A stretch of DNA of 64,000 nucleotides from Fidelibacterota bacterium CG08_land_8_20_14_0_20_45_22 (GCA_002774355.1 PEYN01000018.1:91-64090); one strand, 5' to 3'; shown: positions 3,210 through 62,603, numbered from the stretch's first letter. The notes: generated by a model from the letters alone, not told the origin. Translations and numbers: made by a program.

Positions 3210-3469
3210 TTGTTTCCATCGAACATGTCAGCCTCGCGGGAGTCGGTGATTTCTTCGAAGCTGGTCATGTTTAAGCAAATTTGATTGGGTTTGTCTGCCA
3301 TTAATGGTTTGATTAGGATGAATCTGGTTGTCGGTAACCAGTGAATGGGTTGGCCGGAAAATGCCGACATTGACAAATCGTGCAGAAAATTAACGAAACA
3401 TTTGACGCTTTTCCATGATGAGATGTGTCAAAGTGTACGGATTTTTAAAATGTAGTTAAGGATCAATCG

Positions 3470-7600: not shown

Positions 7601-7757
7601 ATCGTTTGGTTTAGGTGAAGGCGGCGAAACACAGGCTCCGCTCGCTCGCGTCGTGATTGGCGGTTTACTTAGCTCGACGCTCATCACATTGGTACTGGTT
7701 CCGGTTATCTATTCTGTTTTCGAGCAACGGCTGAGAATCCGAAAGGAGCGCGGTTAG
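4663..7757 (+). pseudogene. RND efflux permease (AcrB/CzcA family) split by a single-nucleotide frameshift near 5629-5630 (fragments 4663..5688 and 5712..7757)
   Basis: ORF 4663..5688 encodes the AcrB N-terminal domain up to ...IPIMDTSQ. The frame of 5712..7757 read backwards gives YIKNSISSVGNSALIGGILAVLILFLFLRNVSSTLII, the conserved AcrB continuation. The two frames meet at 5626-5631 with two extra bases (cg). Confidence 0.8.
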
Positions 7758-9251: not shown

Positions 9252-9351
9252 AAATAGCGGTTCTGAGGGGTGGAACATGAGAATAGCATGTAAGCTATTA
9301 TCTTCATCTGTCTATGCTTTCACTGAAAACCATTTCTTGATAATCCGGCGG

Positions 9352-9381
9352 TTTGTGGGTAATTTTCGTGCCGTATTTTTG
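9352..9381 (+). promoter_or_regulatory. Candidate Bacteroidota-type sigma-A promoter upstream of ppdK (TTTG -33 element, TAtTTTTG -7 element)
   Basis: TTTG at 9352-9355 and TATTTTTG at 9374-9381 with 18 nt spacing, about 30 nt upstream of the ppdK ATG; matches the TTTG-N19-TAnnTTTG architecture of Bacteroidota promoters. Confidence 0.3.
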
Positions 9382-9411
9382 AAATGATGAATCGATAATA
9401 AAGAGGAACTT

Positions 9412-12153: not shown

Positions 12154-12177
12154 ACAGATAGTTTAAACTGAAAATAG

Positions 12178-12210
12178 AAGAGGCTGGAATTCTCCAGCCT
12201 CTTTGGTTTT
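12178..12210 (+). terminator. Rho-independent terminator after ppdK
   Basis: GAGGCTGGA-attc-TCCAGCCTC perfect 9-bp stem followed by TTTGGTTTT, 25 nt after the ppdK stop. Confidence 0.65.
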
Positions 12211-12318
12211 CAGGGCATCTTTAAACAATATTTCGCCTTGACCCCAATAAATGTTTAGACATTTTTACGGGTGGTACCTAAATTTCGTTCGCGTTAAGTA
12301 TAATTAATCGGAGTACAC

Positions 12319-13575
12319 ATGTTTTACCGCGACATCGAGAAAGAACTGGAGACCTACATTGACTGCAAGCAGGCAATCTTCATTTTAGGCGCAAGGCAGG
12401 TAGGAAAAACAACTCTGATAAAACGGATGATGACAAATTTTCCCGAGTCCAATCGATACTATTTTGATTTGGAAAAAATGTCAGATAAAAAGGTATTTGA
12501 GGGTGGCGTCCAAAACCTGCTCTCGTTTTTGGAATTTCACGGCTTAGATCTCAAAACCAGGAACTACATTTTTGTCGATGAAATCCAGTATCTGAAAGAT
12601 TTTTCCAATCTTTTGAAACTGTTGGTCGATTACCATTCGGATTCCATCAAATTATTCCTGAGCGGTTCATCGTCCGTACAAATCCAAACGGGTTTTCAGG
12701 ATTCGCTTGCCGGCAGGAAGTATATTTTTAACCTCTTTCCTCTTACATTTCGTGAATTTCTGTTATTTAGAGGCAAAGACCATCTCTATGAAAAATTGAA
12801 TCGTCATTTTTTTGATTGGAAGGAAGATGAATTACGATTTGGTCGTGACGAGTTGTTGCCGCTTCTCTATGAATTTCTGTTGTTTGGCGGCTATCCTGAA
12901 GTCGCCAAAATTGACCAGTTCGATCGGAAAGTCAAATATCTGACGGAAATCGTCAACGCATATATCGTGAAAGATATTCGCACGATGTTTACGATCGAAA
13001 AAATTGATAAGTTCAACCACCTGGTTAGGTATCTTGCGGCAAACATCGCCAATCTACTCTCTATTCATAGCCTTGCTACTGAGGTCGGGATTTATCATGA
13101 AACGATCCTGAATTATCTCAACATTTTGGAAGAATCATTTATCGTCAAACGCATCCCGCCGTTTTTTCAAAATAAGAGTACTGAATTGAAAAAATCGAGT
13201 AAACTCTTTTTCATCGACAATGGCATTCGCAACGCCGTTCTCGAAAATTTTCAAAAACCGGAATTCAGGACAGACACCGGAGCGCTTGCCGAAAATTTTG
13301 CGTTTTCACAACTTTACAAGACTCAACCCGCATCTTCGTCTCTCCATTTTTGGAGAACCCGCGCGAAAAATGAAATTGACTTTGTTCTGAATCGACAGGG
13401 CGAACTTCTTCCCATCGAAATAAAGTCAAAAATTCAGAAACAGCAAAAAATTCTCAGCCAGATAAACTTATTCCGTAAGGAATACCAATGTCCGGCAGGT
13501 TATATTGTGAGCATCAGGGATGAATTCTCCACCCAGAACGATATTCGCGTATTACCCGCCTATTTGCTGACATGA
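12319..13575 (+). CDS. AAA-domain ATPase with C-terminal DUF4143 domain
   Basis: Walker A GARQVGKTTL near the N-terminus, DEIQ Walker B-like motif; overall architecture of the AAA_14/DUF4143 family. 418 aa. Confidence 0.8.
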   Translation: MFYRDIEKELETYIDCKQAIFILGARQVGKTTLIKRMMTNFPESNRYYFDLEKMSDKKVFEGGVQNLLSFLEFHGLDLKTRNYIFVDEIQYLKDFSNLLKLLVDYHSDSIKLFLSGSSSVQIQTGFQDSLAGRKYIFNLFPLTFREFLLFRGKDHLYEKLNRHFFDWKEDELRFGRDELLPLLYEFLLFGGYPEVAKIDQFDRKVKYLTEIVNAYIVKDIRTMFTIEKIDKFNHLVRYLAANIANLLSIHSLATEVGIYHETILNYLNILEESFIVKRIPPFFQNKSTELKKSSKLFFIDNGIRNAVLENFQKPEFRTDTGALAENFAFSQLYKTQPASSSLHFWRTRAKNEIDFVLNRQGELLPIEIKSKIQKQQKILSQINLFRKEYQCPAGYIVSIRDEFSTQNDIRVLPAYLLT

Positions 13576-43865: not shown

Positions 43866-44693
43866 TCAAACCAATATTTTTGCGGTTCTTAACAGAAATT
43901 CTTCCGTCAGAGCCCGGCACAGATAGCGCCGGTATTCCGCGGTCGAGCGTTGATCGGTAATCGGTCTGACCCTGCGCTCGATGCAATCGAGGATTTCAGC
44001 GGATTTTCCTTCACGATATAATTGCTCGGCTTCGTAAGCCCGGATAATCGTCGGTCCGACCGAGGCGTATGTCAGGCGGATTTCGTTGTTATCCGGCAGG
44101 TACAGACCGAGGAAAGCGACCTTCGAGAGTGAGAGCGCCTTGCGCGGCCCGATCTTGCGATATGAATATTTATAGTTCCACGGAATGTTCAGCCGGATTT
44201 CTGTGAGCAGTTCGTCCGAGCGGAGAATTGTCTTCTTCGGCCCGGTGATGAAGTCGCGAACCGGAATCTTCCGGATACCTTGCGCTGATTCGAGCGTGAG
44301 TTCGGCATCCAGCGCGTAAAAGATCGGAAGTGTGTCGCCCGCCGGAGAAGCATTAACGATATTCCCGCCGAAAGTCGCCATGTTGCGGATTGACGGCGAA
44401 GCAATCTGAGTCACTGCATCGGTCAGCGGCGGAAAAATACTTTTCGCCTGCTCGAGATAGGCGGCGTAGGTCAGACCGGCTCCGATTGTCAACTTTCCTT
44501 CGCTGAAATTTATTTGACTAAGTTCCGAAAGATGATTGATCTGAATGAATACCTGCACTCGTTTGACATTTGTGCGGGCTTGCACAAGTAAATCAGTGCC
44601 CCCGGCGATTGGTTGTGCCACGGTTTGGCTCATCAGATCGAGCACTTCCGATTTTTTAGATGGACGGTAATATTTGAGTTTTTCGTACCACAT
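43866..44693 (-). CDS. Xanthine dehydrogenase-family FAD-binding subunit (CoxM/YgfM-like)
   Basis: FAD_binding_5-type N-terminus (YYRPSKKSEVLDLM...PIAGGTDL) plus CO dehydrogenase flavoprotein C-terminal domain; 275 aa. Confidence 0.85.
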   Translation of the reverse strand: MWYEKLKYYRPSKKSEVLDLMSQTVAQPIAGGTDLLVQARTNVKRVQVFIQINHLSELSQINFSEGKLTIGAGLTYAAYLEQAKSIFPPLTDAVTQIASPSIRNMATFGGNIVNASPAGDTLPIFYALDAELTLESAQGIRKIPVRDFITGPKKTILRSDELLTEIRLNIPWNYKYSYRKIGPRKALSLSKVAFLGLYLPDNNEIRLTYASVGPTIIRAYEAEQLYREGKSAEILDCIERRVRPITDQRSTAEYRRYLCRALTEEFLLRTAKILV

Positions 44694-45117
44694 GTTTATT
44701 TAAAAGTGACGGGTGATGAGTGACGGGTAATTTATGCATATCAATTACGTAAAAATATTCTATTTCTTTTTTCAATGAATTTATTAGTCCTATCAGCATC
44801 TGTCGGATTGTGGCTACTTTTTCATCCAAAGCAGATATATTTTTGATTAACTTTAGATTATTTGCAATAATTAATAACGTTTCTAATTCGCCTAACGATC
44901 CTAACGAAATAAATAAAAACTGAATGCATTCTTTTTTAGAACTTCGTCCAGCGCCTTCGGCAATGTTGGCTGGAATGGATATTACGGGTCTGCGGATTTG
45001 TGAAGTAATCCCGCAGGTTTCTTCTTTGGAAAAATCCCGTGTTAAAGAATAAACCTCCGAACCGAGTTCCATACTTTTCTTCCAAACCTTCAGGTCTTTA
45101 TGGGATTTTATTGCCAT
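44656..45117 (-). CDS. Four-helix-bundle protein (23S rRNA intervening-sequence protein family, TIGR02436-like)
   Basis: MAIKSHKDLKVWKKSMELGSEVYSLTRDFSKEE...QIRR...SIPANIAEG is the hallmark of this family; 38-nt overlap with the downstream coxM-like start. Confidence 0.8.
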   Translation of the reverse strand: MAIKSHKDLKVWKKSMELGSEVYSLTRDFSKEETCGITSQIRRPVISIPANIAEGAGRSSKKECIQFLFISLGSLGELETLLIIANNLKLIKNISALDEKVATIRQMLIGLINSLKKEIEYFYVIDMHKLPVTHHPSLLNKHVVRKTQILPSI

Positions 45118-45563: not shown

Positions 45564-46047
45564 CACAGAGGACACGGAGGGCACAGAGGTATTTTTATTT
45601 ATTTTCTTTACTTTAGTCATTAATAATTCGGTGAACCCCATCGATTAATTTTACTACGTTGAAATTTATCAATAATCCTAAGATTCGATTAGAAAGTTTA
45701 AGATAAGACAATAATTGGGCTGTATGAATTGGGAGAAGATTTTCGATGGCTTTTAATTCAACCGCAATTTCACCCTCAACTAATAAATCTATCCGATAAC
45801 CACAGTCTAATTTTACATCTTTATAGACCACCGGCAGATCTTTCTGAGATTCCACTTTCAAACCTAATTGCTTTAATTCATACACAAGACATGCTTCATC
45901 GGTGGATTCCAGCAAACCCGGACCCAGTGCACGATAAACATCAGTAGCCTTACCTATTATTTTCTCCGTAATCTTATTTAATTCCTCTCGTGATTTCATC
46001 TATCTATCTAATATTTTCTCTGTGCTCTCTGTGTACTCTATGGTAAA
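45561..46047 (-). mobile_element. Inverted-repeat-bounded small element carrying a GxxExxY-family gene, inserted between the Mo-binding and 2Fe-2S subunit genes
   Basis: CACCACAGAGGACACGGAGGGCACAGAGGTA at 45561-45591 pairs with the reverse complement of 46016-46047 (TTTACCATAGAGTACACAGAGAGCACAGAGAA), about 24/30 matches. IR-R encodes the last 10 aa (VHREHRENIR) of the Mo subunit gene. Confidence 0.5.
45613..45999 (-). CDS. GxxExxY-family protein (PD-(D/E)xK nuclease-like, TIGR04256/PDDEXK_3-like)
   Basis: GKATDVYRALGPGLLESTDEACLVYEL...RIDLLVEGEIAVELKA contains the GxxExxY signature and a D...E.K core; 128 aa. Confidence 0.85.
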   Translation of the reverse strand: MKSREELNKITEKIIGKATDVYRALGPGLLESTDEACLVYELKQLGLKVESQKDLPVVYKDVKLDCGYRIDLLVEGEIAVELKAIENLLPIHTAQLLSYLKLSNRILGLLINFNVVKLIDGVHRIIND

Positions 46048-51033: not shown

Positions 51034-51093
51034 ACTTGTAATAAAGTCAGGGCAATTTTACGAAAAACTTGTCACAAAGTCAGGGCAATTTTT
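51033..51093. repeat. Two 28-bp direct repeats (period 33 bp) immediately upstream of the PLP enzyme gene
   Basis: AACTTGTAATAAAGTCAGGGCAATTTTA (51033-51060) and AACTTGTCACAAAGTCAGGGCAATTTTT (51066-51093), 25/28 identical. Confidence 0.55.
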
Positions 51094-51303: not shown

Positions 51304-51642
51304 TTAATGATCGCAGGCGTTATCAGCGATCTGAAGCGTACCTTTGAGGTAGTCGTCAACCAGTTTTTCAGGGGTTTCCGCGGAAGCGCCAATGATCACC
51401 TGAATATTGTTTTCGGCAAAAAGCGCCAATGCACGTTGACCCATGCCGCCGGCGATAATCAGGTTCGCACCGCGCTCCGCCAGCCATCTGGGTAAAAGTC
51501 CCGGTTCATGTGGTGGGGAGTTGAGATCATCACGTTTGATGATTTTCTTTTCAGTATCGTTGATATCGATTAAGACGAAGCACTCGCAATGACCAAAGTG
51601 CATGGACAGTCGTCCGCCGACTAAAGGGATGGCGATTCTCAT
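51304..51642 (-). CDS. NifX/NafY-like dinitrogenase FeMo-cofactor-binding domain protein (Nitro_FeMo-Co, MTH1175-like)
   Basis: MRIAIPLVGGRLSMHFGHCECFVLID...LIIAGGMGQRA matches the PF02579 pattern; 112 aa. Confidence 0.8.
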   Translation of the reverse strand: MRIAIPLVGGRLSMHFGHCECFVLIDINDTEKKIIKRDDLNSPPHEPGLLPRWLAERGANLIIAGGMGQRALALFAENNIQVIIGASAETPEKLVDDYLKGTLQIADNACDH

Positions 51643-51786
51643 GAATTGGTTTCCTTTTTAACTAAGTTAATTTTTAGCATTTTCACTTATACAAAATACT
51701 ACAAAGAACCGGATAATTTACCGCATAATTTCGTACCACCGCCGATAAAACTGTTAAATTGACAGATTCCATGCTTTTTTATTCTT

Positions 51787-52659
51787 TTACAAATTGAGTT
51801 GTTTCCAAATTTCTTTAATATCCTGTGCGCTGTCCGCTTCGGTTTCCACGACTGCCAGCGCCTGCATTTGAGCGTCTGTCACGCCCTGATCATACCGGAT
51901 GCGTCCGATGACCCGCGCGCCGTTTTGCCGTGCTTTTTTTTCTATGCGTTCTGTCATTTTTGGATTGAGATCCCATTTATTGACGCAAACATGTGTCGGA
52001 ATACCGAAATGCCGCGTCAGCGATATTACGCGCTCCAAATCGTGTTCGCCGGAAATAGTTGGCTCAGTCACAACCAGCACGATCATTGCACCGGTTATGG
52101 AGGCGATCACCGGACAACCGATTCCCGGTGGGCCGTCCACGATAATCAGTGAGCGCTTTTGTTCTTCGGCGATGAGGCGTGCTTGCTGGCGCACTACCGT
52201 TACTAATTTACCGGAATTTTCAGCCGCGATTCCCAGTTTGGCATGAACCATCGGACCGACGCGCGTTTCCGAGATAAACCATTTGCCGCAGACACGTTCC
52301 GGAAAGTCGATGGCTTTCACCGGGCAGGACCGGACGCAGACGCCGCACCCTTCGCAGGCAGTTGGATCAACGAAGAATTTCACTTTGCCTGAAGGTTCAT
52401 GATTCATTAGTATCGCGTCGAATCTGCAATACGCTAAACAGGCACCGCAAGCGATACAGTCTGATTGACGAATGACAGCTTCGTGGCCGCCCTTAAATTC
52501 ATGGCTCTGCTTGATTTCCGGCGAAAGCACTAAATGCATATCCGCCGCATCAACATCGCAGTCAGCGATGACCGATCGATCAGCTAAAACGGCGAATGAT
52601 GCAGTCAGGCTGGTTTTACCGGTTCCGCCTTTGCCACTGATAATAACCAATTCTTTCAT
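51787..52659 (-). CDS. MinD/Mrp-superfamily P-loop ATPase with inserted 4Fe-4S ferredoxin domain (COG1149-like)
   Basis: Deviant Walker A GKGGTGKTS at the N-terminus; two CxxCxxCxxxCP ferredoxin motifs (CIACGACLAYC, CEGCGVCVRSCP). Confidence 0.8.
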   Translation of the reverse strand: MKELVIISGKGGTGKTSLTASFAVLADRSVIADCDVDAADMHLVLSPEIKQSHEFKGGHEAVIRQSDCIACGACLAYCRFDAILMNHEPSGKVKFFVDPTACEGCGVCVRSCPVKAIDFPERVCGKWFISETRVGPMVHAKLGIAAENSGKLVTVVRQQARLIAEEQKRSLIIVDGPPGIGCPVIASITGAMIVLVVTEPTISGEHDLERVISLTRHFGIPTHVCVNKWDLNPKMTERIEKKARQNGARVIGRIRYDQGVTDAQMQALAVVETEADSAQDIKEIWKQLNL

Positions 52660-52772
52660 GAATCAACGTTCCTCTTTCAGATCACAATAACCTTGTCTCA
52701 TTTGGTTTGGATGGTGCCTGTGCCAGGTGTTATTCGTCGTCTTCTCCTTGTAGATTACTGGTTTTTCGTATC

Positions 52773-53732
52773 TCATTTTGTCGCGAACTTTCTCAGATAG
52801 AATGTGTGTCCTTGGTAATTCGTTGCCGCAAGATTGTCTTGAGCAACCAGTCGATCGACGATTTCCCAAGACGCACCTGCTCGGGAAAGAAACGCGCTAA
52901 CCGCATCTTCTCTCATTGGATGAACAGCAGTTATACTTAACAAATCTTTTTCAATATTTCCGGTGAAGGCAAAGGCGTTTCCTTCGTAGCCAATCAGATA
53001 TTCTACTCGATCGAATCTATCGGTAAAAACCTGAAACATCCGGTTGAGAGTTTCTTCATCCGGTTTTTGTACCGGCTTCTCCGCTGGCGGGCGAATAGGA
53101 ATACTTATATAAGCCTGAGCCGGTTGGATTTTATTGACAAAATCAGCCACTTCCTTCAGGCACTCGTCATTGTCGTTTATTCCTTTGACAAGCATTGTTT
53201 CGGTCGCCAATTTGCCGGTAAAATATTTTGCAAATGTCGATATTCCGTCCAAAATCATGGGTAATTGGAGGGTTTTATGGGGTCGATTGATCTTGTGCCA
53301 TGTCTTTTCCCGGACGGAATCAATTTTCACCGAAACCCAATCGGCTTTGCTGAGTTCTTCTCTCACATCTTCCCGCCAAATCAGCGAGCTGTTGGTAATC
53401 ACGCCGACGGGAACGTTCAGCATCTTTAACAAGGTAATTGCTTTGCCCAGATTAATATCCATCGTAGGCTCGCCATCCGGTACGAAGGTGAGATAATCGA
53501 CTCGTTCGGCAGTCTCTTTTGCCTTTGCTAACCGACTTTGCACGTCATGGAAAATGTCTTCAGGTTCGTAAAAAAATCGGCGTTCGCTTTGCATATGTGA
53601 GGTTCGCCCTACCTGACAGTAAACGCAGGAATAGGTGCATACTTTGGCGGGAATATTGTTGATTCCCAAACTTTTCCCCAGTCGCCGCGACGGAACGGGT
53701 CCGTAAGAATATTTGTATTCTTGAACGGTCAT
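52773..53732 (-). CDS. Radical SAM enzyme (COG0731-like, no SPASM domain)
   Basis: YGPVPSRRLGKSLGINNIPAKVCTYSCVYCQVG with the CxxxCxxC radical SAM cluster motif; 319 aa; translationally coupled with the downstream ATPase gene. Confidence 0.85.
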   Translation of the reverse strand: MTVQEYKYSYGPVPSRRLGKSLGINNIPAKVCTYSCVYCQVGRTSHMQSERRFFYEPEDIFHDVQSRLAKAKETAERVDYLTFVPDGEPTMDINLGKAITLLKMLNVPVGVITNSSLIWREDVREELSKADWVSVKIDSVREKTWHKINRPHKTLQLPMILDGISTFAKYFTGKLATETMLVKGINDNDECLKEVADFVNKIQPAQAYISIPIRPPAEKPVQKPDEETLNRMFQVFTDRFDRVEYLIGYEGNAFAFTGNIEKDLLSITAVHPMREDAVSAFLSRAGASWEIVDRLVAQDNLAATNYQGHTFYLRKFATK

Positions 53733-54583
53733 TATTTAAAATTCCCTGTATTTTTCAAACTTGTTATTTTTTTGATCAAATTTAGAAAGAGGTTGCGATA
53801 TTCGGGTAGAGCCTTTACAATCAGTTCGCCCCGGGAATAGGCTTCGGCAATCCGCCGATCATTAGGAATCTCTATGAGGATCGGAATATTTTCTGCGCTA
53901 CAGTATAAATTCACACGGTCGTCTCCAATTCCGGCGCGATTGATTATGACACCAAACGGAATTTTCATTTTCCGCACCGTTTCGACGGCAAGTTTCAGAT
54001 CGTACAATCCAAAAGGCGTCGGTTCTGTAACGAGCGCCACAAAATCCGCCCCTCTGATTGTGTTGATTACCGGGCAGGATGTTCCCGGCGGAGCGTCCAG
54101 AATGGCTGGAATTTTTCTGTTTAAACGGGCTTTGATCGCGCGGATCAACGGCGGAACCAGCGCTCCCCCAATATCAAACTGGCCGTGAATCAAAGTTATT
54201 TTATCCGCCTGAAATGTCTCGATAATTCCGATCCGGTTATCGACTTCGCGGATGGCTTTTTGCGGGCAGATTTGCGCACAACCACCGCAACCATGACACA
54301 GGTCTGGGAATATAAGAGGTTTAGCGCCAAGCGTTACAATGGCGTGAAATTCGCAAATCCGACTGCATTCATCGCATCCATCGCAGAGATTTTCATTGAC
54401 TTGTGGAATTAAAATTGTGGCAATTTCTTGCTTAAGCGGGCTACCTTTTAAAAATAATTGGTCATTTGGCTCTTCGACATCGCAATCCAAAAGTTGAATC
54501 TCACGGTCAAAGGCGCTCGCAAGATTCACGGCAACGGTTGTCTTGCCGGTTCCGCCTTTACCGGATGCGATGGCGAGAATCAT
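53732..54583 (-). CDS. MinD/Mrp-superfamily P-loop ATPase with inserted 4Fe-4S ferredoxin domain (second copy)
   Basis: MILAIASGKGGTGKTTVAVNLA Walker A; CDGCDECSRICEF and CHGCGGCAQICPQKA ferredoxin motifs. Start placed at Met32 of the ORF call, giving an ATGA overlap with the DUF89 stop. Confidence 0.8.
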   Translation of the reverse strand: MILAIASGKGGTGKTTVAVNLASAFDREIQLLDCDVEEPNDQLFLKGSPLKQEIATILIPQVNENLCDGCDECSRICEFHAIVTLGAKPLIFPDLCHGCGGCAQICPQKAIREVDNRIGIIETFQADKITLIHGQFDIGGALVPPLIRAIKARLNRKIPAILDAPPGTSCPVINTIRGADFVALVTEPTPFGLYDLKLAVETVRKMKIPFGVIINRAGIGDDRVNLYCSAENIPILIEIPNDRRIAEAYSRGELIVKALPEYRNLFLNLIKKITSLKNTGNFK

Positions 54584-55383
54584 CAGAAAGACCTCTCTTT
54601 TATACTTTCGGTGTTGGATTTCATCAGAACCTGTGTCCCGACTGGTAATCCGATATGATTCGCAATTACCGGACATTTCACTTTGAAGAGAAAATAGATA
54701 TTGCGCGGTTCATCGCTGAGTGTTTCGTAATTGCCCTGACCTTTGGCAATGATCAAGTCTGCATCCTCAAATCGCCGGATAAATTCCCGACTGCAATCAG
54801 CCAATATCGTGCCCGGCGCATCCGAGCCGTTGTCGATAATCTTGACGATTTTATCAAGCCCGACGGTTTGCGCATCAATAATTGTAGCATCGTTGATAAT
54901 CGGCGCGCCGCGAACAACCAGCGTTACCCGTTTTTCTAAAATCTGCTCAATGAGCAAGCGGTCAAAAGCGATTTCGCCGGCATTATCTGCCAAATAAAGA
55001 ATATTCTTGGCGCCGAAAATAGCCGCCCGAAATTTTTCCCAATCGCCGGCGAGTGGCTCTTGCAATGCCTGATGAACAGCGCGCATTATGTCATTTTCTG
55101 TCAGATGACCATTGACGCCAAGGTCGATAATGTTTCCGGCGATGGCGAGACGAGTAGCCATAGCTAACGAATCTTCCGCCGATTCAACCTCGGCTTTCAA
55201 TCTGGGAAATAAATCCAAAGCCAAACGGTTATGTTTTTCCTTTTCCGTCTGATATGGGTCGCGCTGTCCGGTGATTTCACGCAGACGACGATGAAAAAAT
55301 TGTCCCATAACGGGCGGAGAAATGCTCATGTTCATATCGCTGGTTTTTTTCAACACTTCCCGGAGTATTTGTTCCTGAATCAC
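54583..55383 (-). CDS. DUF89 / ARMT1-like damage-control phosphatase family protein
   Basis: Family-typical LAIAGNIIDLG and DNAGEIAFD metal-binding segments. Uses a GTG start at 55383. An in-frame N-terminal extension to about 55445 encodes YLDCVPCFVTQALDAARRV, the CxxC N-terminal motif of the family, but has no canonical start codon. Confidence 0.7.
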   Translation of the reverse strand: MIQEQILREVLKKTSDMNMSISPPVMGQFFHRRLREITGQRDPYQTEKEKHNRLALDLFPRLKAEVESAEDSLAMATRLAIAGNIIDLGVNGHLTENDIMRAVHQALQEPLAGDWEKFRAAIFGAKNILYLADNAGEIAFDRLLIEQILEKRVTLVVRGAPIINDATIIDAQTVGLDKIVKIIDNGSDAPGTILADCSREFIRRFEDADLIIAKGQGNYETLSDEPRNIYFLFKVKCPVIANHIGLPVGTQVLMKSNTESIKERSF

Positions 55384-55457
55384 CGGGTCTTCTGTAACTC
55401 GGCGCGCCGCGTCGAGAGCCTGAGTAACGAAGCAGGGAACGCAGTCAAGGTACGTTT

Positions 55458-55976
55458 TTATAATTCAATCATCCTGCGTTTGCCTTTCTTTTTAGCTGAT
55501 TTCTCGTCTACGTCATCCTGCCAGCCATCCCGGAGCGTTTCGATCCGATCGAACCTTTTTATATAAGGCTTAATATCGATCAGCGGCGTGCCATCCAGAA
55601 TATCTCCGCCGTTTATGTACAAAATGTTGCCTTTGCGCCGGACAAGTTCGACAATGCTCAATCCTATAGCATTCGGCCGGTTGGGCGCTCGTGTCGCAAA
55701 CAGGCCGCGTTCAACATCCTGAAGAAACGGTTTTACCAGAAGTTTTGCCGGTTGTGCCCGATGAAAATGATAGATCAGATAAATGTGCGAAAACCCATCC
55801 AAATCACGAAGTCCCTCGGCAAATTCTGGAAATACTTCAACTTGCGCCGAACACTCTTTTGCATAAACTGGTTGAATTGGCGTCTGATCTTCAGCAGTGT
55901 TCTCGCTGTGAATGATTCCAATCGGTTTGAATAAAATTTCAGATTCGCTCAAATTAATGTCCTTCGACATCATCAC
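55458..55976 (-). CDS. TsaA/TrmO-like (YaeB family) SAM-dependent methyltransferase-fold protein
   Basis: FKPIGIIHS...GLRDLDGFSHIYLIYHFH...GLFATRAPNRPNAIGLSIVEL matches the TsaA-like domain (UPF0066). Confidence 0.8.
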   Translation of the reverse strand: MMMSKDINLSESEILFKPIGIIHSENTAEDQTPIQPVYAKECSAQVEVFPEFAEGLRDLDGFSHIYLIYHFHRAQPAKLLVKPFLQDVERGLFATRAPNRPNAIGLSIVELVRRKGNILYINGGDILDGTPLIDIKPYIKRFDRIETLRDGWQDDVDEKSAKKKGKRRMIEL

Positions 55977-56310
55977 TTTTTAATTCGGGAAGTTTACCGG
56001 TGCGATATTGTGCAAGAGCCTCGGCTATCGTCAAATTCTCCGCTGTAAAAATTTTAATCCCGGCGGCAGAAAGTACGCTGAAAGCCTTTGGCCCGCAATT
56101 TCCGGACACCAGTGCCTGCACTCCCAAGCGCGCAATGGCTTCCGCCGATTGGACGCCAGCGCCCTGTACCGTATTCTGGCTCTGCAGATTATCAAACAAT
56201 TTGTAAGATTCGTTGTCCAAATCATAGACGAGAAATAGCGGCGCTCGACCAAACCGGTTGTCTAAAAGAGAACTCAAATCATTTCCTGATGTTGTAAAAG
56301 CAATTTTCAT
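55954..56310 (-). CDS. NifX/NafY-like FeMo-cofactor-binding domain protein (Nitro_FeMo-Co), second copy
   Basis: MKIAFTTSGNDLSSLLDNRFGRAPLFLVYDLD...ALVSGNCGPKA pattern of PF02579; 118 aa. Confidence 0.8.
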   Translation of the reverse strand: MKIAFTTSGNDLSSLLDNRFGRAPLFLVYDLDNESYKLFDNLQSQNTVQGAGVQSAEAIARLGVQALVSGNCGPKAFSVLSAAGIKIFTAENLTIAEALAQYRTGKLPELKSDDVEGH

Positions 56311-56374
56311 AAACTTTCCCCTTCTTCTCCCGATTGGGATTAAAAGCGGGTTAACATTTACGATCGTAAAGTTA

Positions 56375-57100
56375 CTAGATTTTTACCTGTTTTACGATGG
56401 CTTTCATCACCTTTTCTTTGTCGATTTCTTTAAGGCAGAAGAACCAATCGAGACATTTGATTCCTTCCTTGCCTTCCATGCGCTCTTTGGCAACGCCGCA
56501 AGAACCGGCTGTCGGAACAATGACGTCATCACCCGGGCGCCAATCCGCCGGAGTCGCTATTGAAAATGCATCCGCAGTCTGCAATGCTGTGACAACACGA
56601 AGCAACTCATCAAAATTACGTCCCAAGCTGAGCGGATAGTAAATAATCGTACGGATAATGCCTTTGGGATCGATCACGAAGACGGCGCGTACCGCTTTTG
56701 TTGGACTTTCGCCCGGCATCATCATTCCGTATTTTTTGGCAACTTCCATGGTGATATCTTCGATCAAAGGAAATTTAACCTCGACATTCTTCATGCCTTT
56801 GTATTCGATTTTTTCCTTGATGGTGCGAAGCCAGGCAATGTGGCTGTATAAACCGTCCACAGAAAGCCCAACTAATTTGCAATTCAGTTTGGCAAATTGA
56901 TCTTCCATCGAAGCAAAAGTCATGAATTCTGAGGTACAAACTGGTGTAAAATCAGCCGGATGGCTAAACAGGATTACCCAGCTTCCCAAATACTGATCCG
57001 GGAAGTTGATCTCACCCTGCGTGGTAACGGCCTTGAAAGCAGGGGCCATGTCGCCGATGCGTGGCATTGACACATTCTGATTTTCTTTGTTTATTTCCAT
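56375..57100 (-). CDS. 1-Cys peroxiredoxin (Prx6-like)
   Basis: DFTPVCTSEF peroxidatic Cys motif; 241 aa length typical of the Prx6 subfamily. Confidence 0.9.
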   Translation of the reverse strand: MEINKENQNVSMPRIGDMAPAFKAVTTQGEINFPDQYLGSWVILFSHPADFTPVCTSEFMTFASMEDQFAKLNCKLVGLSVDGLYSHIAWLRTIKEKIEYKGMKNVEVKFPLIEDITMEVAKKYGMMMPGESPTKAVRAVFVIDPKGIIRTIIYYPLSLGRNFDELLRVVTALQTADAFSIATPADWRPGDDVIVPTAGSCGVAKERMEGKEGIKCLDWFFCLKEIDKEKVMKAIVKQVKI

Positions 57101-57189
57101 ACATTTTCTCCTTTTTTATTGGTTAGAGTCGCCTAAGCCGCGCCGGTTTCAAAACCGGCACGGCTTAGTTAACAAGTGATGGTACTTGA

Positions 57190-57546
57190 TCAGGTTTCTT
57201 TTCCCTTTTCAATCGTCGCAAGTCGTTTTTTCACTTCATCGAGTTCCGATTTTAGAAAATCAGATTGGTTGATTAGGGCTTGTTTTTCCGTCTCCGGATC
57301 AGGGTTCTGGTACGGCGAGGGGTATCCGTAAGGCACGTTATATCCGCTAAACCTTTGCCAGCCCGGTAACCCGTTGCCATAAAACCCGTGCCGGAATCCA
57401 CGTCCCCAGCCGCCACGGCCCATTCCGAAACCGCGTCCTGGCACTGGATTTGCGTATCCCGGTGCTCCGTTTCCCGCGCAGAATCCGGCCGCGCGTCCGG
57501 TCATTGGGCCCATTCCCATCGGACCCGTTCGATCTCCTCTTGGCAT
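57190..57546 (-). CDS. DUF5320-family Gly/Arg-rich protein
   Basis: N-terminal MPRGDRTGPMGMGPMTGRAAGFCAGNG motif typical of DUF5320, C-terminal coiled-coil (LKSELDEVKKRLATIEKG). Confidence 0.6.
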   Translation of the reverse strand: MPRGDRTGPMGMGPMTGRAAGFCAGNGAPGYANPVPGRGFGMGRGGWGRGFRHGFYGNGLPGWQRFSGYNVPYGYPSPYQNPDPETEKQALINQSDFLKSELDEVKKRLATIEKGKET

Positions 57547-57578
57547 AGTTATGATCTCCTTTCTTATAGATTAACTAT

Positions 57579-58187
57579 TTATTGTCTTGTCATTGCCGAA
57601 CCGCAGTTCGGGCATTTTTGTTCAAAGCAGGGAATACCGCGCCGATGCGGTTCTCTTCGTCCGCATACCGGACAGACGCAATAGTCACTTGGGTCGGCGG
57701 CCTCAAGGACGCTCACGCGCCCGAACCCTTGACCCCTTCTGCCCTGACCACGATTAGCGCCTTGTCCTGTTCTGCCCGGTCTTCTTCCTTTTACTGGAAA
57801 AATTTCGTTATAAGTACCATACATTTGCCCAAACTGATAGCGCCTTCGCCCGTAACAACCCGGCATGGCGAAAACATTCCAATCGGAACGTTTGGTAAGC
57901 CAAGCCTGGATGATTTCGTCGAGATCACCTGCTACAAACGGAATAACATAGATTCCGTGAGCAATGATGGTTTCATGTAAAGGTCGGGAGATTGCTCCGC
58001 AAACCAGCACCTCAATGCCCAATTCTTTTAATCGAGCGGCTTTCATGGCTGGAGTTAAATCGATAGGTATAAATTCCTGTTCTAATGAAATGACGCGTCC
58101 ACTTTCGGTCTCAGCGATGTGAATTTGTCCCGCAGTGTCGAAGACTGGCGCTATCCGATTGTTCCAGATTGTAAAGGCTACTTTCAT
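57579..58187 (-). CDS. NifX/NafY-like FeMo-cofactor-binding domain protein with Gly/Arg-rich linker and C-terminal zinc-ribbon
   Basis: N-terminal MKVAFTIWNNRIAPVFDTAGQIHIAE...VLVCGAIS (Nitro_FeMo-Co), RG-rich segment (GRRPGRTGQGANRGQGRRGQGFGR), CVCPVCG...CPNCG ribbon. Confidence 0.75.
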   Translation of the reverse strand: MKVAFTIWNNRIAPVFDTAGQIHIAETESGRVISLEQEFIPIDLTPAMKAARLKELGIEVLVCGAISRPLHETIIAHGIYVIPFVAGDLDEIIQAWLTKRSDWNVFAMPGCYGRRRYQFGQMYGTYNEIFPVKGRRPGRTGQGANRGQGRRGQGFGRVSVLEAADPSDYCVCPVCGRREPHRRGIPCFEQKCPNCGSAMTRQ

Positions 58188-58224
58188 ATTTCACAGTTCC
58201 AATTCATAATTTCAACAATATTTA

Positions 58225-58241
58225 AAGCATTTATCATGCCA
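58225..58241 (-). promoter_or_regulatory. Candidate sigma-54 (-24/-12) promoter for the NifX-like/DUF5320/peroxiredoxin operon
   Basis: Minus strand reads TGGCATGATAAATGCTT: GG and GC spaced as in the TGGCAC-N5-TTGC consensus. Lies about 40 nt upstream of the 58187 start codon and 135 nt downstream of the sigma-54 activator gene. Confidence 0.45.
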
Positions 58242-58374
58242 GAACAAAATATCCCTACTTTTCATCGCACAACTATCTGAAATATAGCAAGTTAAAAAAC
58301 TGCTTCTTTTAAATCACTGCGATTATATAGTAGCCTTGGCGCTACTCTGTCACCCTGCGATGGTTGCAGATATG

Positions 58375-59736
58375 TTATGATTTACGATGGGAGCGGCCGT
58401 CTTTTTCCGGCAATGAAATCCCGAGTTTTTTCATGCGGCGGAATAAGGTGGTCTTGTGAATGCCAAGTTCTTTCGCCGCCGCCGCCCGATTGAAATTATT
58501 GCGTTCGAGAGCGGACTGAATAGACTGGGAGTCGAGCAAATTGTGGGCAGAGCGGATCGTAGACAAACTTGAGTTTTTTGTGTAATGTGCCGTCAGTTCT
58601 TCGGGCAGGTGAGTCAGCAGAATATAGCCCTCATTACAAAGAATGAACGAGCGTTCGATTACATTTTCCAGTTCACGGACATTGCCCGGCCAGTCATGCG
58701 CCATTAGTAACGAGAGCGCTTCGGAGGAGATGCCTTTGATTGATTTCTGCCAGAGTTGGTTGAAGCGCCGGATAAATTGCCCAGTAATCAGCGGAATATC
58801 TTCTTTCCGGTGGCGGAGCGGCGGCAGGTCGACGCGCACAACGTTTACGCGATAGTAAAGATCGTCGCGGAATGTGCCAGCCTTCATCATTTCTGTCAAA
58901 TCCTTGTTAGTAGCAACAATAATCCGCGCGTCGGCGGTTTCAGAGCGGGTCGAACCGAGTGGCTCATAGATGTGATCCTGAAGTACCCGTAGAAGTTTGA
59001 CTTGCAACGCCGGGCTGATTTCACCGATTTCGTCGAGAAACAGTGTTCCGCCTTTGGCTAATGCAAAGCGTCCCGGTTTGTCTTTGTTAGCTCCGGTAAA
59101 CGCACCCTTTTTATAACCAAACAGTTCTGATTCCAGTAATTCGTCGGGTAATGCGCCGCAATTGACCGCGATGAATGGCCCTTTACGGCGCGGACTCAAA
59201 TGATGAACCGTCCTTGCGATCAATTCCTTGCCGGTTCCGGTTTCGCCGATTATCAAGACCGTGCTCGGGCTGGCGGCAATTGCCGGAAGCACTTCAAATA
59301 TTTTTTGCATCAAGGGACTACGACTGACAATATCGCCAAAAGTCATTTTGGCATGTAGTTCCTGGCGTAAAGTTTCGATTTCGCTCAAATCCCGAAAAGT
59401 CTCAGCCCCGCCGATGATGTAACCTTCTCCATCTTTCAGTACGGCGGTCGATATACTGATGGGTATGCGGGAGCCGTCCGCCTTAATAATGTAGGCGGAT
59501 TTGCCAATGATCGGCTTGCCGGTTTTTAATGTTTTCTGTAGGGCGCAGTCGGTTCCACAGAGGCTGGAGCGAAATACTTCCGAACAGCGTTGGCCAATCG
59601 CCTCTTCTCGCGTAACCCCGGTGATTTCTTCCGCCGCTCGATTAAAAGACGAAATGCGCCAATTGGAATCTACCGTAAAGACGCCATCGGAGATGCTTTC
59701 CAGAATATTTTCGATCATTTCAGGTTTCAGCGACAT
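58375..59736 (-). CDS. Sigma-54-dependent transcriptional activator with N-terminal PAS domain (YgeV-like)
   Basis: PAS N-terminus; AAA+ sigma-54 interaction domain (GETGTGKE Walker A, GAFTGA loop, DEIGE Walker B); C-terminal Fis-type HTH. Confidence 0.9.
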
Positions 59737-59913: not shown

Positions 59914-60936
59914 TTACGGTCTTCCGCCCATCGTCAGCGCCATGACGGCTTTCGCGGTATGCAGACGGTTTTCGGCTTCGTCGTAAATGATCGCCGCTGG
60001 TCCGTCAATGACTTCATCGGCGACTTCTTTGCCGCGATCGGCGGGCAGGGCGTGCATGTATTTGACTTCTGGTGCGGCGAGTTTCATCCGGCGGGCGTCG
60101 CAAATCCAATCGGTATGTTTTTCGAGATTGGTCTTCATCTCTTTGCGACACTCTTCTTCATTTTGGTTGTACTCGTCGAATTCATAGTTGCCGAATCCGC
60201 CCCAGTTTTTCGGGATGACAATCTGAGCGCTACGGAATCCCTCATCCATGTTGTCGGTGAATGACAGTTTGCCGCCATTCAGCCGGGTGTTTTCCTGCGC
60301 CTGGGCGACATATTCCTTTTTTAATGGAAATTCTTTCGGCGCGGCGACCGTCACGTCCATACCGAAACGCGGAAAGAGCAGAATTTGCGAAAGCGGTACG
60401 GAGAGCGGTTTAGCGTGACTGGTGGCGTACGCCCAGGAAATCGTGACTTTCAAGCCATGCAAATTTTGCCCGAAATATTCCTGCATCGTCATCAAATCGG
60501 CGATTACCTGCATGGGGTGAAAAATATCATCCTGCAACGAGAGAATCGGCACGGACGAGAATTGCGCCAATTCACGTAGATATTTGTTGCCGATGCCGTA
60601 GAAGCAATTGCGGCAGGCGATGCCGTGTCCCATGCGCGAAAGCACCATGGCAGTATCCTTAGCCGATTCGCCGTGTGAAAGTTGCATTTTGTCGGGTGTC
60701 AAGTCATGGGCATGGCCGCCGAGTTGAGTCATGCCGGCTTCCATCGAATTGCGCGTGCGCGTGGATTGCTCAAAAAACATCATGAAAAGCGTCTTGTCCT
60801 GCAATAGCCGATGCGGCTCACCGAGCGCGAATTTGCGCTTGAGGTCAGCGGCAACCCCGAGCACCATATTGATTTCGTTTTTTGTCCATTCATTAAAAGT
60901 GATGAGGTGTTTCCCTCGTAAAAGAGTCTCGTTCAT
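59914..60936 (-). CDS. YgeW-family carbamoyltransferase (ATCase/OTCase superfamily; oxamate carbamoyltransferase-like)
   Basis: STRTR carbamoyl-phosphate motif; WAYATSHAKPLSVP and MHALPADRG segments closely resemble E. coli YgeW (WAYSPSYGKPLSVP, MHCLPAD). Confidence 0.85.
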   Translation of the reverse strand: MNETLLRGKHLITFNEWTKNEINMVLGVAADLKRKFALGEPHRLLQDKTLFMMFFEQSTRTRNSMEAGMTQLGGHAHDLTPDKMQLSHGESAKDTAMVLSRMGHGIACRNCFYGIGNKYLRELAQFSSVPILSLQDDIFHPMQVIADLMTMQEYFGQNLHGLKVTISWAYATSHAKPLSVPLSQILLFPRFGMDVTVAAPKEFPLKKEYVAQAQENTRLNGGKLSFTDNMDEGFRSAQIVIPKNWGGFGNYEFDEYNQNEEECRKEMKTNLEKHTDWICDARRMKLAAPEVKYMHALPADRGKEVADEVIDGPAAIIYDEAENRLHTAKAVMALTMGGRP

Positions 60937-60946
60937 ATCAAACCTT

Positions 60947-61372
60947 TCATGTTAACCGCGGAGGACGCTGAGAACGCAGAGTTTCTCCTTGATAATTGTT
61001 GACAATTCTTTTTATTCCATTTTTAAGTATGCTTGAATTGAAGTTAATCAACAACCCTACTTGTAGTTTTGAGATTTTTAAGTAATTCAGTAGTTGCGCC
61101 TGATCGATATTGGTCAGTTCGTTGACGGCTTTACACTCAACCACCAATTGGTCGTCGATAAAAAAGTCGCAACGAAAACCTTTTTCTATCACTATGTCAG
61201 CATATTTAACGGACAGATATTTTTCCTTTTCAAATTTCATTCCGGCTTCCTGCATTTCACAAGCCAGGGCGGCCTGATAAACCGATTCCAAAAACCCGGG
61301 GCCAAGATTGCGGTGAACCTTAATCGCTAAACCGATTACTGTTTCCGTCAGTTGGTTTATATCTTCAAACAT
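60947..61372 (-). CDS. GxxExxY-family protein (second copy)
   Basis: GLAIKVHRNLGPGFLESVYQAALACEM...RCDFFIDDQLVVECKA contains the GxxExxY signature; paralog of 45613..45999. Confidence 0.85.
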   Translation of the reverse strand: MFEDINQLTETVIGLAIKVHRNLGPGFLESVYQAALACEMQEAGMKFEKEKYLSVKYADIVIEKGFRCDFFIDDQLVVECKAVNELTNIDQAQLLNYLKISKLQVGLLINFNSSILKNGIKRIVNNYQGETLRSQRPPRLT

Positions 61373-61406: not shown

Positions 61407-62603
61407 TTATTTCCCGCGGCTCAGATTTGCGACCAGTCCGGCGTAGAAAGCCGCGGCTTGCCAGAGGTGCTCGACCGGCGTCCATTCGTTCGGGGCGTGG
61501 GCTTGCTCCTCGAATCCCGGCCCGAAGCCGATGCACGGTATACCATGCACGCCGCGAATCGTCACACCATTGGTCGAGAAAGTCCACTTGTCGACAACCG
61601 GCTCCTTTGCGAACAGGTTGCGGTAGTTTTCAATTCCAGCCTGAACGAGAGGGTGGTCGGTTTCCAGTTTCCAGGTTGGGAAATATTTTTCCATTGGATA
61701 GACTTTTCCGGTGAATGCCTTTTCCCGGTAAACCGGCAATTCGACTTTGGCGTCAATTTTCAGTTTTTCAATGATAGCACGAATTTCCGCTAACGCTGAT
61801 TCCTTCGTCTCGCCCCAGGTCAGGCGGCGGTCGAGATAGATCGAACAATAATCTGGCACGGCACATAATGACGGACTGATAGATTTTATCTGGCTTAGCA
61901 CGACGGTGCCTTTGCCGAGAAATTCATCGAATGCCAGACGTTCGTTGAGCAGTTCAATTTCTTTTATCAGCGGTGCGATTTTGTAAACGGCGTTGTCGCC
62001 GCGTTCCGGCGCGGAGCCGTGCGCGGAAAGTCCGACGACGGAGATTTCGATTTCCATGCGTCCGCGCTGACCGCGATAAATCCGACAGCCGGTTGGTTCG
62101 GTGCTGACGGCGAAGTCGGGGCGGAGGTGGTCTTCATTGACAATATAATTCCAGCACAAGCCGTCGCAATCTTCTTCCATGACCGAACCGACGAAATAGA
62201 CAGTGCAATCTCTGGCGAGGTCGAATTCCATAATAATGCGTGCCGCCGCCAGCATAGACGCCATGCCGCCTTTCTGGTCAGCTACGCCGCGCCCCCAGAC
62301 CTTGCCGTCTTTCACATGACCATCGAACGGATCGAACTGCCACAGACTACGGTTGCCGACATCCACGGTGTCTATGTGAGCGTCGAAAGCGATTTTGACT
62401 GGACCATTGCCGAGGCGCCCGATGATGTTGCCGATGCCGTCGATGATTATTTCATCGAAGCCGATGTCTTCCATTTCCTTTTTTATTCGGCTAATTACAT
62501 TTCCCTCTTGGCCACTCAGTGAGGGAATCGAGGCAAGTTCAGCCAGGAAATTGGCTGTAGAATGATCTAAGCCTTTAGCAAGCCTTATGATTTTTGTTTT
62601 CAT
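61407..62603 (-). CDS. M20-family peptidase, YgeY-like
   Basis: Long collinear similarity to E. coli YgeY (e.g. MEEDCDGLCWNYIV, YRGQRGRMEIEI, HGSAPERGDNA, VVDKWTFSTNGV, HAPNEW). Start placed at the internal Met MKTKIIRL (62603). Confidence 0.85.
   Translation of the reverse strand: MKTKIIRLAKGLDHSTANFLAELASIPSLSGQEGNVISRIKKEMEDIGFDEIIIDGIGNIIGRLGNGPVKIAFDAHIDTVDVGNRSLWQFDPFDGHVKDGKVWGRGVADQKGGMASMLAAARIIMEFDLARDCTVYFVGSVMEEDCDGLCWNYIVNEDHLRPDFAVSTEPTGCRIYRGQRGRMEIEISVVGLSAHGSAPERGDNAVYKIAPLIKEIELLNERLAFDEFLGKGTVVLSQIKSISPSLCAVPDYCSIYLDRRLTWGETKESALAEIRAIIEKLKIDAKVELPVYREKAFTGKVYPMEKYFPTWKLETDHPLVQAGIENYRNLFAKEPVVDKWTFSTNGVTIRGVHGIPCIGFGPGFEEQAHAPNEWTPVEHLWQAAAFYAGLVANLSRGK

Follow-up and report, generated by a model that had tools for sequence, protein, structure and literature searches.

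Introduction

The orp gene cluster, which encodes the ORange Protein (ORP) complex, was first described in Desulfovibrio vulgaris and is known from sulfate-reducing bacteria. Here we compare it with a block of ten genes on the minus strand (positions 51304–58187) of a 64,000-nt stretch of DNA, referred to below as the window, from the Marinimicrobia member Fidelibacterota bacterium CG08_land_8_20_14_0_20_45_22 (GCA_002774355.1, PEYN01000018.1:91-64090). The block lies beside the genes of a molybdenum hydroxylase and was originally predicted, from the sequence of the window, to mature, insert or protect the cofactor of that enzyme. We think it fairly probable that the region is an orp-type cluster under the control of an OrpR-type regulator, concerned with metal–sulfur handling, and that it is no dedicated hydroxylase maturation system.

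In D. vulgaris Hildenborough the ORP complex and the orp operons (DVU2103-2109) have been described together with their regulator, OrpR (PMC8359166, PMC3897727, PMC6345978). The two operons are divergent and are transcribed from sigma-54 promoters; they have an absolute requirement for OrpR, which works only when the redox potential is low (PMC8359166, PMC3897727). Residues C52, D/E54, C61 and C65 of OrpR hold a redox-sensing [4Fe-4S] cluster (PMC8359166). Among the products, Orp3 and Orp4 are paralogous ATPases with two [4Fe-4S] motifs each, and MrpORP (Orp9) passes iron–sulfur (Fe–S) clusters to both of them in vitro and binds a [3Fe-4S] cluster in its Di-Nase domain (PMC6345978). The complex itself is made up of Orp3, Orp4, Orp5, Orp8 (the orange protein) and Orp9, in which an Mrp/NBP35 P-loop domain is fused to the NifX-like, C-terminal Di-Nase domain. 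A protein that is related by fold, IssA of Pyrococcus furiosus, combines a NifX fold with a cationic Gly/aromatic tail and stores thioferrate (PMC5524996).

Results

Gene content and predicted ORP components

The block consists of ten co-directional open reading frames, numbered here g1 to g10 in the direction of transcription. Pfam and NCBIfam searches bore out every family that had been predicted for them, as well as the two flanks, with a sigma-54 activator gene (58375–59736) on one side and genes for a pyridoxal phosphate (PLP) enzyme, MocA, XdhC and XdhL downstream on the other. An independent gene call on the same contig in public metagenome assemblies gave the identical ten genes, with the shorter starts that we use here. 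The genes had been described as mostly overlapping or abutting, through ATGA and 1-bp overlaps. Two 1-bp overlaps are indeed present (TGATG and TAATG), and with one 1-nt gap they bring the overlapping or abutting junctions to three of nine rather than to most of them; the remaining junctions have gaps of 32–144 nt, and none of the nine has an ATGA overlap. No terminator-like hairpin was found on the coding strand within the module, so a single transcript stays plausible, and a search of the larger intergenic gaps for internal terminators or extra sigma-54 sites gave nothing convincing.

Judged by their sequences, six of the ten genes are predicted ORP components or candidates for them, the other four (g3, g5, g6 and g8) being additions. 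Two of the six encode MinD-type ATPases of the Orp3/Orp4 type, g7 (53732–54583) and g9 (51787–52659), which are paralogues with 28% identity and, like their D. vulgaris counterparts, have two [4Fe-4S] motifs each. In g7 these are two CxxCxxCxxxC motifs in an inserted ferredoxin domain; the protein is 100% identical to one of Candidatus Marinimicrobia bacterium CG08_land_8_20_14_0_20_45_22. The Walker A sequence SGKGGTGKT and the eight ferredoxin cysteines are invariant, as are C34 (in DCD) and C170 (in GTSCP), which lie outside the ferredoxin insert in both paralogues and which, we speculate, may form an inter-subunit metal site. An AlphaFold2 (AF2) model of g7 (predicted local distance difference test, pLDDT, 85.6) has the MinD/SIMIBI fold. 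This fold is generic, since Foldseek matched MinD, ParA, ApbC, NifH, BchL and HypB about equally, with archaeal MinD proteins closest.

Two further components belong to the Nitro_FeMo-Co family. The product of g4 (55954–56310) is an orange-protein (ORP/Orp8) homologue, whose top match among solved structures is ORP from Desulfovibrio gigas (2WFB; E = 3.9e-19, 40% identity over 109 residues). The second-best solved match, MTH1175, scored nearly the same, and we therefore assigned g4 to an ORP/MTH1175 subfamily. The product of g10 (51304–51642) is a stand-alone homologue of MrpORP's Di-Nase domain. It matches positions 265–365 of the NCBIfam MrpORP model with 129.7 bits (E = 1.6e-37; the cutoff of 450 is for the full length), and it has HFGHCE close to its N-terminus and CDH as its C-terminal end, the motifs that have been proposed as [3Fe-4S] ligands in MrpORP (PMC6345978). 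In two of the related loci surveyed below, L089 and L092, the halves of MrpORP occur as two adjacent genes: a separate Mrp/NBP35 gene stands directly before the g10 equivalent, and the one in L092 matches positions 2–250 of the MrpORP model with 388.7 bits. We looked for a decayed Mrp gene in the 144-nt gap between g9 and g10 and in the whole window and found none, nor is there any Mrp/NBP35 domain in the window.

The first two genes are candidates by position only for equivalents of Orp5, a small [2Fe-2S] protein, and Orp7, with g1 the candidate for Orp5. The product of g1 (57579–58187; Nitro_FeMo-Co, 1.4e-8) has a NifX-like domain with conserved cysteines in CGAIS and MPGC, followed by an arginine–glycine (RG)-rich linker and a C-terminal ribbon with four to six Cys (CxCPxCG...PC...CPxCG), which in an alignment of 39 homologues is mostly limited to a Marinimicrobia-type subgroup. 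Genes of this type come first after the promoter in most OrpR-linked loci. The product of g2 (57190–57546; Pfam DUF5320, 3.2e-31) begins with MPxGDxTGPxGxGPxTGRxAGxCxG, a Cys-containing motif that is strongly conserved among 47 homologues, and continues with a low-complexity stretch of Gly, Arg and aromatic residues, then a Pro-rich linker and, at the C-terminus, an amphipathic helix.

Both proteins bear comparison with IssA. The NifX-fold domain (IPR003731) is shared with g1, and a cationic Gly/aromatic, probably disordered segment is present in the g1 tail and, in trans, in g2. The fit is one of composition (isoelectric point, pI, of 10.8 for the RG-rich g1 tail and of 10.0 for residues 1–85 of g2, in which Gly occurs 23 times, Arg 8 times and aromatic residues 13 times), and no similarity between the tail sequences was detected. 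Unlike IssA, g1 ends in the Cys ribbon, while g2 has its conserved N-terminal motif and a coiled-coil end.

An OrpR-type activator and a predicted sigma-54 promoter

The activator gene, also on the minus strand, encodes a sigma-54 enhancer-binding protein with the Pfam domains PAS, Sigma54_activat, AAA_lid_14 and HTH_8. Its PAS domain contains C51-x-E53-x6-C60-x3-C64, with spacing identical to that of the four cluster-holding residues of D. vulgaris OrpR. All of the 27 module-adjacent activators that were aligned keep the three cysteines, with one more residue separating the last two in a single protein, and 26 keep the acidic residue. NCBIfam has no OrpR model, and the top match of the activator there, to PrdR, fell under the cutoff of that model.

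A -24/-12 element had been noted 40 nt upstream of the first gene. We placed this element, TGGCATGATAAATGCT (58226–58241, minus strand), 38 nt 5' of the g1 ATG. Taken alone it is at chance level, as the sigma-54 consensus with two mismatches has 25 matches in the window and 23.4 are expected. Because the single-site match is uninformative, we used positional conservation across relatives as evidence for a promoter. In all 14 related loci in which the activator precedes the module, a GG-N10-GC element scoring 14–16 of 16 is present 5' of the module, at a distance of 12–45 nt from the first gene in 12 of them and further upstream in the other two. Given this conserved position, we take the predicted sigma-54 promoter 5' of g1 to be real.

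Two candidate activator sites lie upstream of the promoter on the same strand. The first, CTGCAACCATCGCAG (58355–58369), is an inverted repeat directly 3' of the activator gene and resembles CTGCGACACAGTCGCAG, which is located at the equivalent place in locus L011. The second is the palindrome GTAGCGCCAAGGCTAC (58330–58345), about 105 nt upstream of the -24 element. The pattern GTNGCN6GCNAC, to which it conforms, occurs three times in the window compared with 0.6 expected, and palindromes of the type GTCGCA-N4-TGCGAC are found in relatives 130–205 nt upstream of the first ATG. Its half-sites are similar to those of the mapped D. vulgaris Hildenborough OrpR site GGGCGYRTTTTGCGCCC (PMC8359166).

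Distribution of the module and its companions

Scanning one genome per species with an alignment of the MinD-ferredoxin ATPases turned up at least 417 relatives. Of these the best 80 loci, which came from Desulfobacterota, Planctomycetota, Ignavibacteria, Lentisphaerae, Chloroflexota, Omnitrophota, Spirochaetota, Acidobacteriota and several archaeal groups, were kept and searched with all proteins of the window. A metagenome scan with the radical SAM (S-adenosylmethionine) protein g8 added further loci, and the non-redundant set used below comprises 93 module loci. Extra open reading frames within the modules and those in 775 kb of flanks were clustered, and representatives were run through Pfam and NCBIfam.

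Among the 80 genome loci, the g9-type ATPase is paired with the g7 type in 76, and NifX-fold genes of the g4 and g10 types are present in 69 and 63, respectively. Genes of the g1 type (29 loci), DUF5320 (28) and the activator (21) are less frequent, followed by the radical SAM (18), DUF89 (17), TrmO-like (10) and peroxiredoxin (3) genes. Hydroxylase subunits were detected in a single locus, L077, where they are on the opposite strand; XdhC, MocA, the PLP enzyme, the carbamoyltransferase and YgeY were detected in none of the 80.

Other families recur with the module in the set of 93. Most frequent are Mrp/NBP35 proteins matching the N-terminal domain of MrpORP (45 loci) and NifU_N/IscU-type scaffolds, which are sometimes fused as NifU_N-Mrp (35). 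Then come FmdB-type Zn_ribbon_8 proteins (23 counting whole loci, 19 within module spans), DUF134 (20), SAM methyltransferases (16–18), CGGC proteins (12), the Fur family (7), FeoB (6), the metallo-beta-lactamase fold (6 within modules and 11 in flanks) and pyruvoyl-dependent arginine decarboxylase (5); ferritin and DsrE-like genes are also among the companions. A search of the whole window for NifU_N, Zn_ribbon_8, FeoB, DsrE, methyltransferase, DUF134, ferritin and CGGC genes found none, and the module here is without three parts that many relatives have: an Mrp/NBP35 loader, a scaffold of the IscU type and the FmdB zinc ribbon that partners the radical SAM enzyme. No recurrent client metalloenzyme and no recurrent molybdate or tungstate transporter was found in the 775 kb of flanks of the 93 loci.

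Some of these neighbourhoods are worth recording in their own right. Beside the module, activators of the OrpR type (26 loci) and DUF134 proteins (20 loci) nearly exclude each other, with both present in one locus. This suggests two alternative regulatory solutions, in which DUF134 would fill the regulator's role in lineages such as Chloroflexota and archaea. In L092 the operon has FeoA, FeoB and two TonB-dependent receptors between orp genes (1970-4351, 7329-9707, 11303-13281). In that relative the genes for metal uptake seem to share a transcript with the module; in the locus studied here they were either lost or never present. The arginine decarboxylase lies inside or beside orp-type modules in L006, L010, L011, L043 and L094, and the module itself also encodes arginine- and glycine-rich proteins.

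The companions bear on a role in cell division or positioning, as first proposed for the D. vulgaris ORP complex. On that view the MinD-like ATPases would set the place of the septum or of a polar structure, and the metal clusters would be redox sensors and nothing more. In D. vulgaris, inactivation of OrpR is reported to cause morphological defects and MrpORP to be localised at the pole (PMC8359166, PMC6345978), and the modelled fold of g7 is, as said, closest to archaeal MinD. Yet division genes such as MinC, MinE or FtsZ do not recur in the flanks, the companions that do recur are Fe–S scaffold or carrier genes and iron-homeostasis genes, and archaea have the module too, as do phyla whose division machineries differ greatly. 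We consider such a role improbable.

The adjacent molybdenum hydroxylase block

If the module served the adjacent xanthine-dehydrogenase-family enzyme, it would mature, insert or protect its molybdopterin (molybdopterin cytosine dinucleotide, MCD, with a labile S/Se ligand) or its Fe–S centres. One possible route is that an ORP-type protein handles thiomolybdate and hands sulfurated Mo to XdhC/MocA, and isolated ORP has been reported, in work cited in PMC6345978, to bind a Mo-Cu-S cluster. The gene order fits, as the module stands between genes for a YgeY-family hydrolase and a carbamoyltransferase upstream and the PLP, MocA, XdhC and hydroxylase genes downstream. The downstream adjacency is repeated in L092, the closest relative (about 80% identity), and the upstream one in L086-88. 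Moreover, we found no terminator-like hairpin between g10 and the PLP gene, and read-through co-transcription into the hydroxylase block is therefore possible in this lineage.

The neighbourhood search, in contrast, found the module kept as a unit in 93 loci, with hydroxylase genes within reach in only two of them, L092 and the unrelated L077, which is about the chance level for a common enzyme family. This count makes the adjacency a trait of one sub-lineage. The original prediction had named conservation of the module as a unit in genomes lacking any molybdenum hydroxylase as an outcome that would speak against it, and at the level of gene neighbourhoods this is what the loci show. Within the Marinimicrobia, the module adjoins the same chromosomal anchor upstream (PPDK, then esterase) in L086-88 and L089-91 with no hydroxylase, YgeY and the carbamoyltransferase also being missing from L089-91, and L094, L099 and L104 have 5–8 kb of downstream flank without a hydroxylase block. 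The survey of the flanks likewise gave neither a recurrent client enzyme nor a recurrent transporter for molybdate or tungstate. Compared with maturation of the XdhC/MocA/YqeB/YqeC type, the likeness amounts to physical adjacency here and in one close relative, with no shared protein families and no conserved co-occurrence.

The hydroxylase block also has its own XdhC and MocA maturation genes and, it seems, its own promoter region. The 282-nt spacer before the gene for the threonine-synthase-like PLP enzyme contains, outside the module, a tandem repeat of two copies of AAATTGCCCTGACTTTRTKACAA 33 nt apart (51036–51091, minus strand). This sequence is found nowhere else in the window, where no match is expected, and the repeats are kept 5' of the equivalent gene in L092 (15620-15685). 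They overlap a sigma-70-like CTGACT-17-TAAAAT and are probably the operator/promoter of the PLP, MocA, XdhC and hydroxylase block, which argues for separate control. All in all, we regard it as very improbable that the module is a maturation system for the hydroxylase, as had been proposed.

The upstream neighbours were annotated as well. With 559.8 bits, the M20 peptidase at 61407-62603 (minus strand) exceeds the cutoff of 321 that NCBIfam sets for the YgeY family selenium-metabolism-linked hydrolase; the carbamoyltransferase at 59914-60936 (minus strand) is under the cutoffs of all named families, YgeW included. L086-88, which have no hydroxylase, carry this pair upstream of the module too. 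Small genes of the PD-(D/E)XK_3 and 23S_rRNA_IVP families (45613-45999, 44656-45117 and 60947-61372, all on the minus strand) are inserted between the genes for the hydroxylase subunits and, likewise, between YgeY and the carbamoyltransferase; a similar insertion is present in L086, and they look like small genes that hitch-hike within operons.

Accessory genes and the radical SAM enzyme

The four genes without an assigned ORP counterpart are lineage-variable accessories that recur in the module across several phyla. The g3 product (56375–57100) is a Prx6-type peroxiredoxin (AhpC-TSA and 1-cysPrx_C; PRK13189, 332.5 bits vs a cutoff of 211). It had been called a 1-Cys peroxiredoxin; the family is right, whereas the 1-Cys mechanism is not established, because the protein has three further C-terminal cysteines. 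Peroxiredoxins of this type are found inside the modules of L016, L059, L089, L094, L099, L101 and L133. The g5 product (55458–55952) has a TrmO_N/TsaA fold (Pfam TrmO_N, 6.1e-41; TIGR00104, 124 bits) without the C-terminal domain of TrmO, and genes of its type occupy the slot directly before the first MinD gene in L006, L008, L010, L029, L089 and L092. The g6 product (54583–55329) has the fold of DUF89/ARMT1-like metal-dependent phosphatases (Pfam, 1e-66) and falls under the NCBIfam cutoffs for damage-control phosphatases (169 vs 500). Genes of the g6 type are mostly found right before the first MinD gene.

The g8 product (52773–53732; Pfam Radical_SAM) is a radical SAM enzyme in which CTYSCVYC comes after GPVPSRRLG. 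The signature GPVPSRRLGxSLG, then CxxxCxxCQ, is common to all module-linked homologues across phyla, and the genes of homologues with at least 68% identity lie between both MinD genes wherever the contig holds both flanks. A search with the single sequence found no solved homologue, and a family profile run against the PDB reached distant relatives, namely TYW1 (7e-6) followed by viperin-like enzymes and MoaA. As these matches are weak, we placed g8 in no characterised family; NCBIfam gave no NifB match for it. In the same profile, the C-terminal ~80 residues (~225–305 of g8) weakly match MarR/AdcR-type winged-helix proteins (E ~5e-4), and this region may be an added nucleic-acid- or protein-binding domain. 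In ~20 loci, spread over several phyla, the gene directly upstream of the one for this enzyme encodes an FmdB-type Zn_ribbon_8 protein (MPTYEYEC...), for example at 9726-10004 in L092, 10853-11116 in L086 and 3963-4220 in L006, and the two genes form a conserved two-gene unit that the window lacks.

These observations raise the possibility of a cofactor-building pathway, in which the radical SAM enzyme (with FmdB zinc ribbons and SAM methyltransferases in relatives), IscU/Mrp, NifX-fold carriers and NifH-like ATPases would make a modified or higher-order metal–sulfur species, as NifB, NifX and NifH do. NifX-fold carriers, a radical SAM enzyme and P-loop Fe–S ATPases of the same superclass are indeed shared with the NifB/NifX/NafY/NifH assembly of the iron–molybdenum (FeMo) cofactor, and in NifB a radical SAM domain and a NifX-fold domain are joined in one protein (PMC5524996). 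Such a pathway would also suit the single signature of g8 across phyla, the placement of its gene between those of the ATPases, its ribbon and methyltransferase companions, and the modelled ATPase fold, which matches NifH, BchL, ApbC and HypB as well as MinD. However, the radical SAM gene is not core, since about a fifth of the module loci have it, and the ORP complex of D. vulgaris exists without such an enzyme. NifEN and NifDK are absent here along with any NifB-type radical SAM enzyme, the match to the nifX model TIGR02663 is 20.9 bits against a cutoff of 112, and the ATPases have inserted ferredoxin domains in place of the bridging-cluster architecture of NifH. We therefore consider a cofactor-building pathway unlikely.

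Discussion

The closest described counterpart of this locus is the D. vulgaris orp system. Both have a sigma-54 promoter, predicted here, with an adjacent PAS, AAA+ and HTH activator that carries three cysteines and an acidic residue in its PAS domain, two MinD-type ATPases with two [4Fe-4S] motifs each (g7 and g9), an ORP homologue (g4), a protein of the MrpORP Di-Nase type with HFGHCE and CDH (g10), and upstream palindromes with similar half-sites. NifX-like genes together with MinD-ferredoxin genes are accordingly not a wholly uncharacterised combination, as the original prediction had it, but correspond to the ORP/orp system (PMC8359166, PMC6345978). In the literature, DUF5320, COG1149/COG1433 and the DVU locus tags led to nothing beyond ORP-related papers. 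The alternative offered at the time, an independent sigma-54-regulated redox system, is the reading that the evidence favours and matches OrpR/orp, and the general idea of a system that handles metal clusters fits as well.

By analogy with D. vulgaris, the activator would probably sense low redox potential through a [4Fe-4S] cluster held by its three PAS cysteines, bind the palindromes ~100–130 nt upstream of the promoter and drive sigma-54 RNA polymerase from 58226–58241. With such a redox-gated activator acting on a sigma-54 promoter, expression of the ten genes would be confined to strongly reducing conditions. From the companions and the published biochemistry we infer that the products may form a nucleotide-switched complex that holds, stores or passes anionic Fe–S or metal-sulfide species. 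In such a complex g7 and g9 would act as a nucleotide-switched heterodimer, with g1, g4 and g10 as carriers or holders of these species, and the cationic Gly/Arg/aromatic segments of g1 and g2 could take the role of the IssA tail in binding thioferrate.

Several points weigh against an orp-type cluster of this kind, in addition to the possible read-through into the hydroxylase block and the adjacency to hydroxylase genes that is common to L092. First, the arrangement differs: a single co-directional operon of ten genes lies 3' of the activator gene here, whereas D. vulgaris has two divergent operons of three genes (among the related loci, the activator is divergent from the module in L031, L034 and L044). 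Only the Di-Nase half of MrpORP is encoded, its Mrp/NBP35 domain being absent, and the activator has GAFTGA where that of D. vulgaris Hildenborough has GAFTDA (PMC4641369). There are also extra radical SAM, DUF89, TrmO-like and peroxiredoxin genes, and g1 has an RG linker and Cys ribbon of its own. The host belongs to the Marinimicrobia, and OrpR was earlier thought to be confined to Deltaproteobacteria. Second, orthology to Orp3, Orp4, Orp5, Orp7 and OrpR is proposed from architecture, motifs and gene context, with two indirect anchors (2WFB and the MrpORP model). Third, the Fe–S handling mechanism is proposed from neighbouring genes and in vitro work, whereas a cell-division role was once put forward for the complex and isolated ORP carries a Mo-Cu-S cluster (cited in PMC6345978). 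The comparative picture nevertheless favours iron–sulfur handling over cell division or molybdenum-enzyme maturation.

What is new here is an orp cluster in a phylum from which none had been described, organised as a single operon with recurrent accessory genes and without the Mrp loader. This assigns the module to a system that is known, if functionally unexplained, and removes an attractive but unsupported link between it and the maturation of a molybdenum/selenium hydroxylase. In itself the locus makes ORP function no more testable than the D. vulgaris system does. OrpR-type, Fe–S-sensing activators beside orp modules extend well beyond Deltaproteobacteria, into Marinimicrobia, Ignavibacteria, Planctomycetota and Spirochaetota, and the accessory set (Mrp, IscU-type scaffold, FmdB with radical SAM, methyltransferases, DUF89/TrmO-like proteins, CGGC, Fur and FeoAB) points to iron–sulfur handling rather than cell division and offers concrete candidates for experiments on ORP function.

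A bolder and quite tentative idea, which we hold to be unlikely as it stands, is that the extended orp module is a widespread pathway of anaerobes, switched on only at low redox potential, for building or storing non-canonical iron–sulfur species. Its parts would be the NifX-fold carriers, the IssA-like cationic DUF5320 protein, the MinD-ferredoxin pair, an IscU/Mrp loader, the radical SAM enzyme with its FmdB ribbon, and SAM methyltransferases, and it might yield a thioferrate-like polymer or, in analogy to NifB-co, a cluster modified with SAM. In a less likely version of the idea, this Marinimicrobia lineage would have recruited the module for its selenium/molybdenum hydroxylase. If the pathway were real, the long-unexplained ORP complex would gain a biochemical function.

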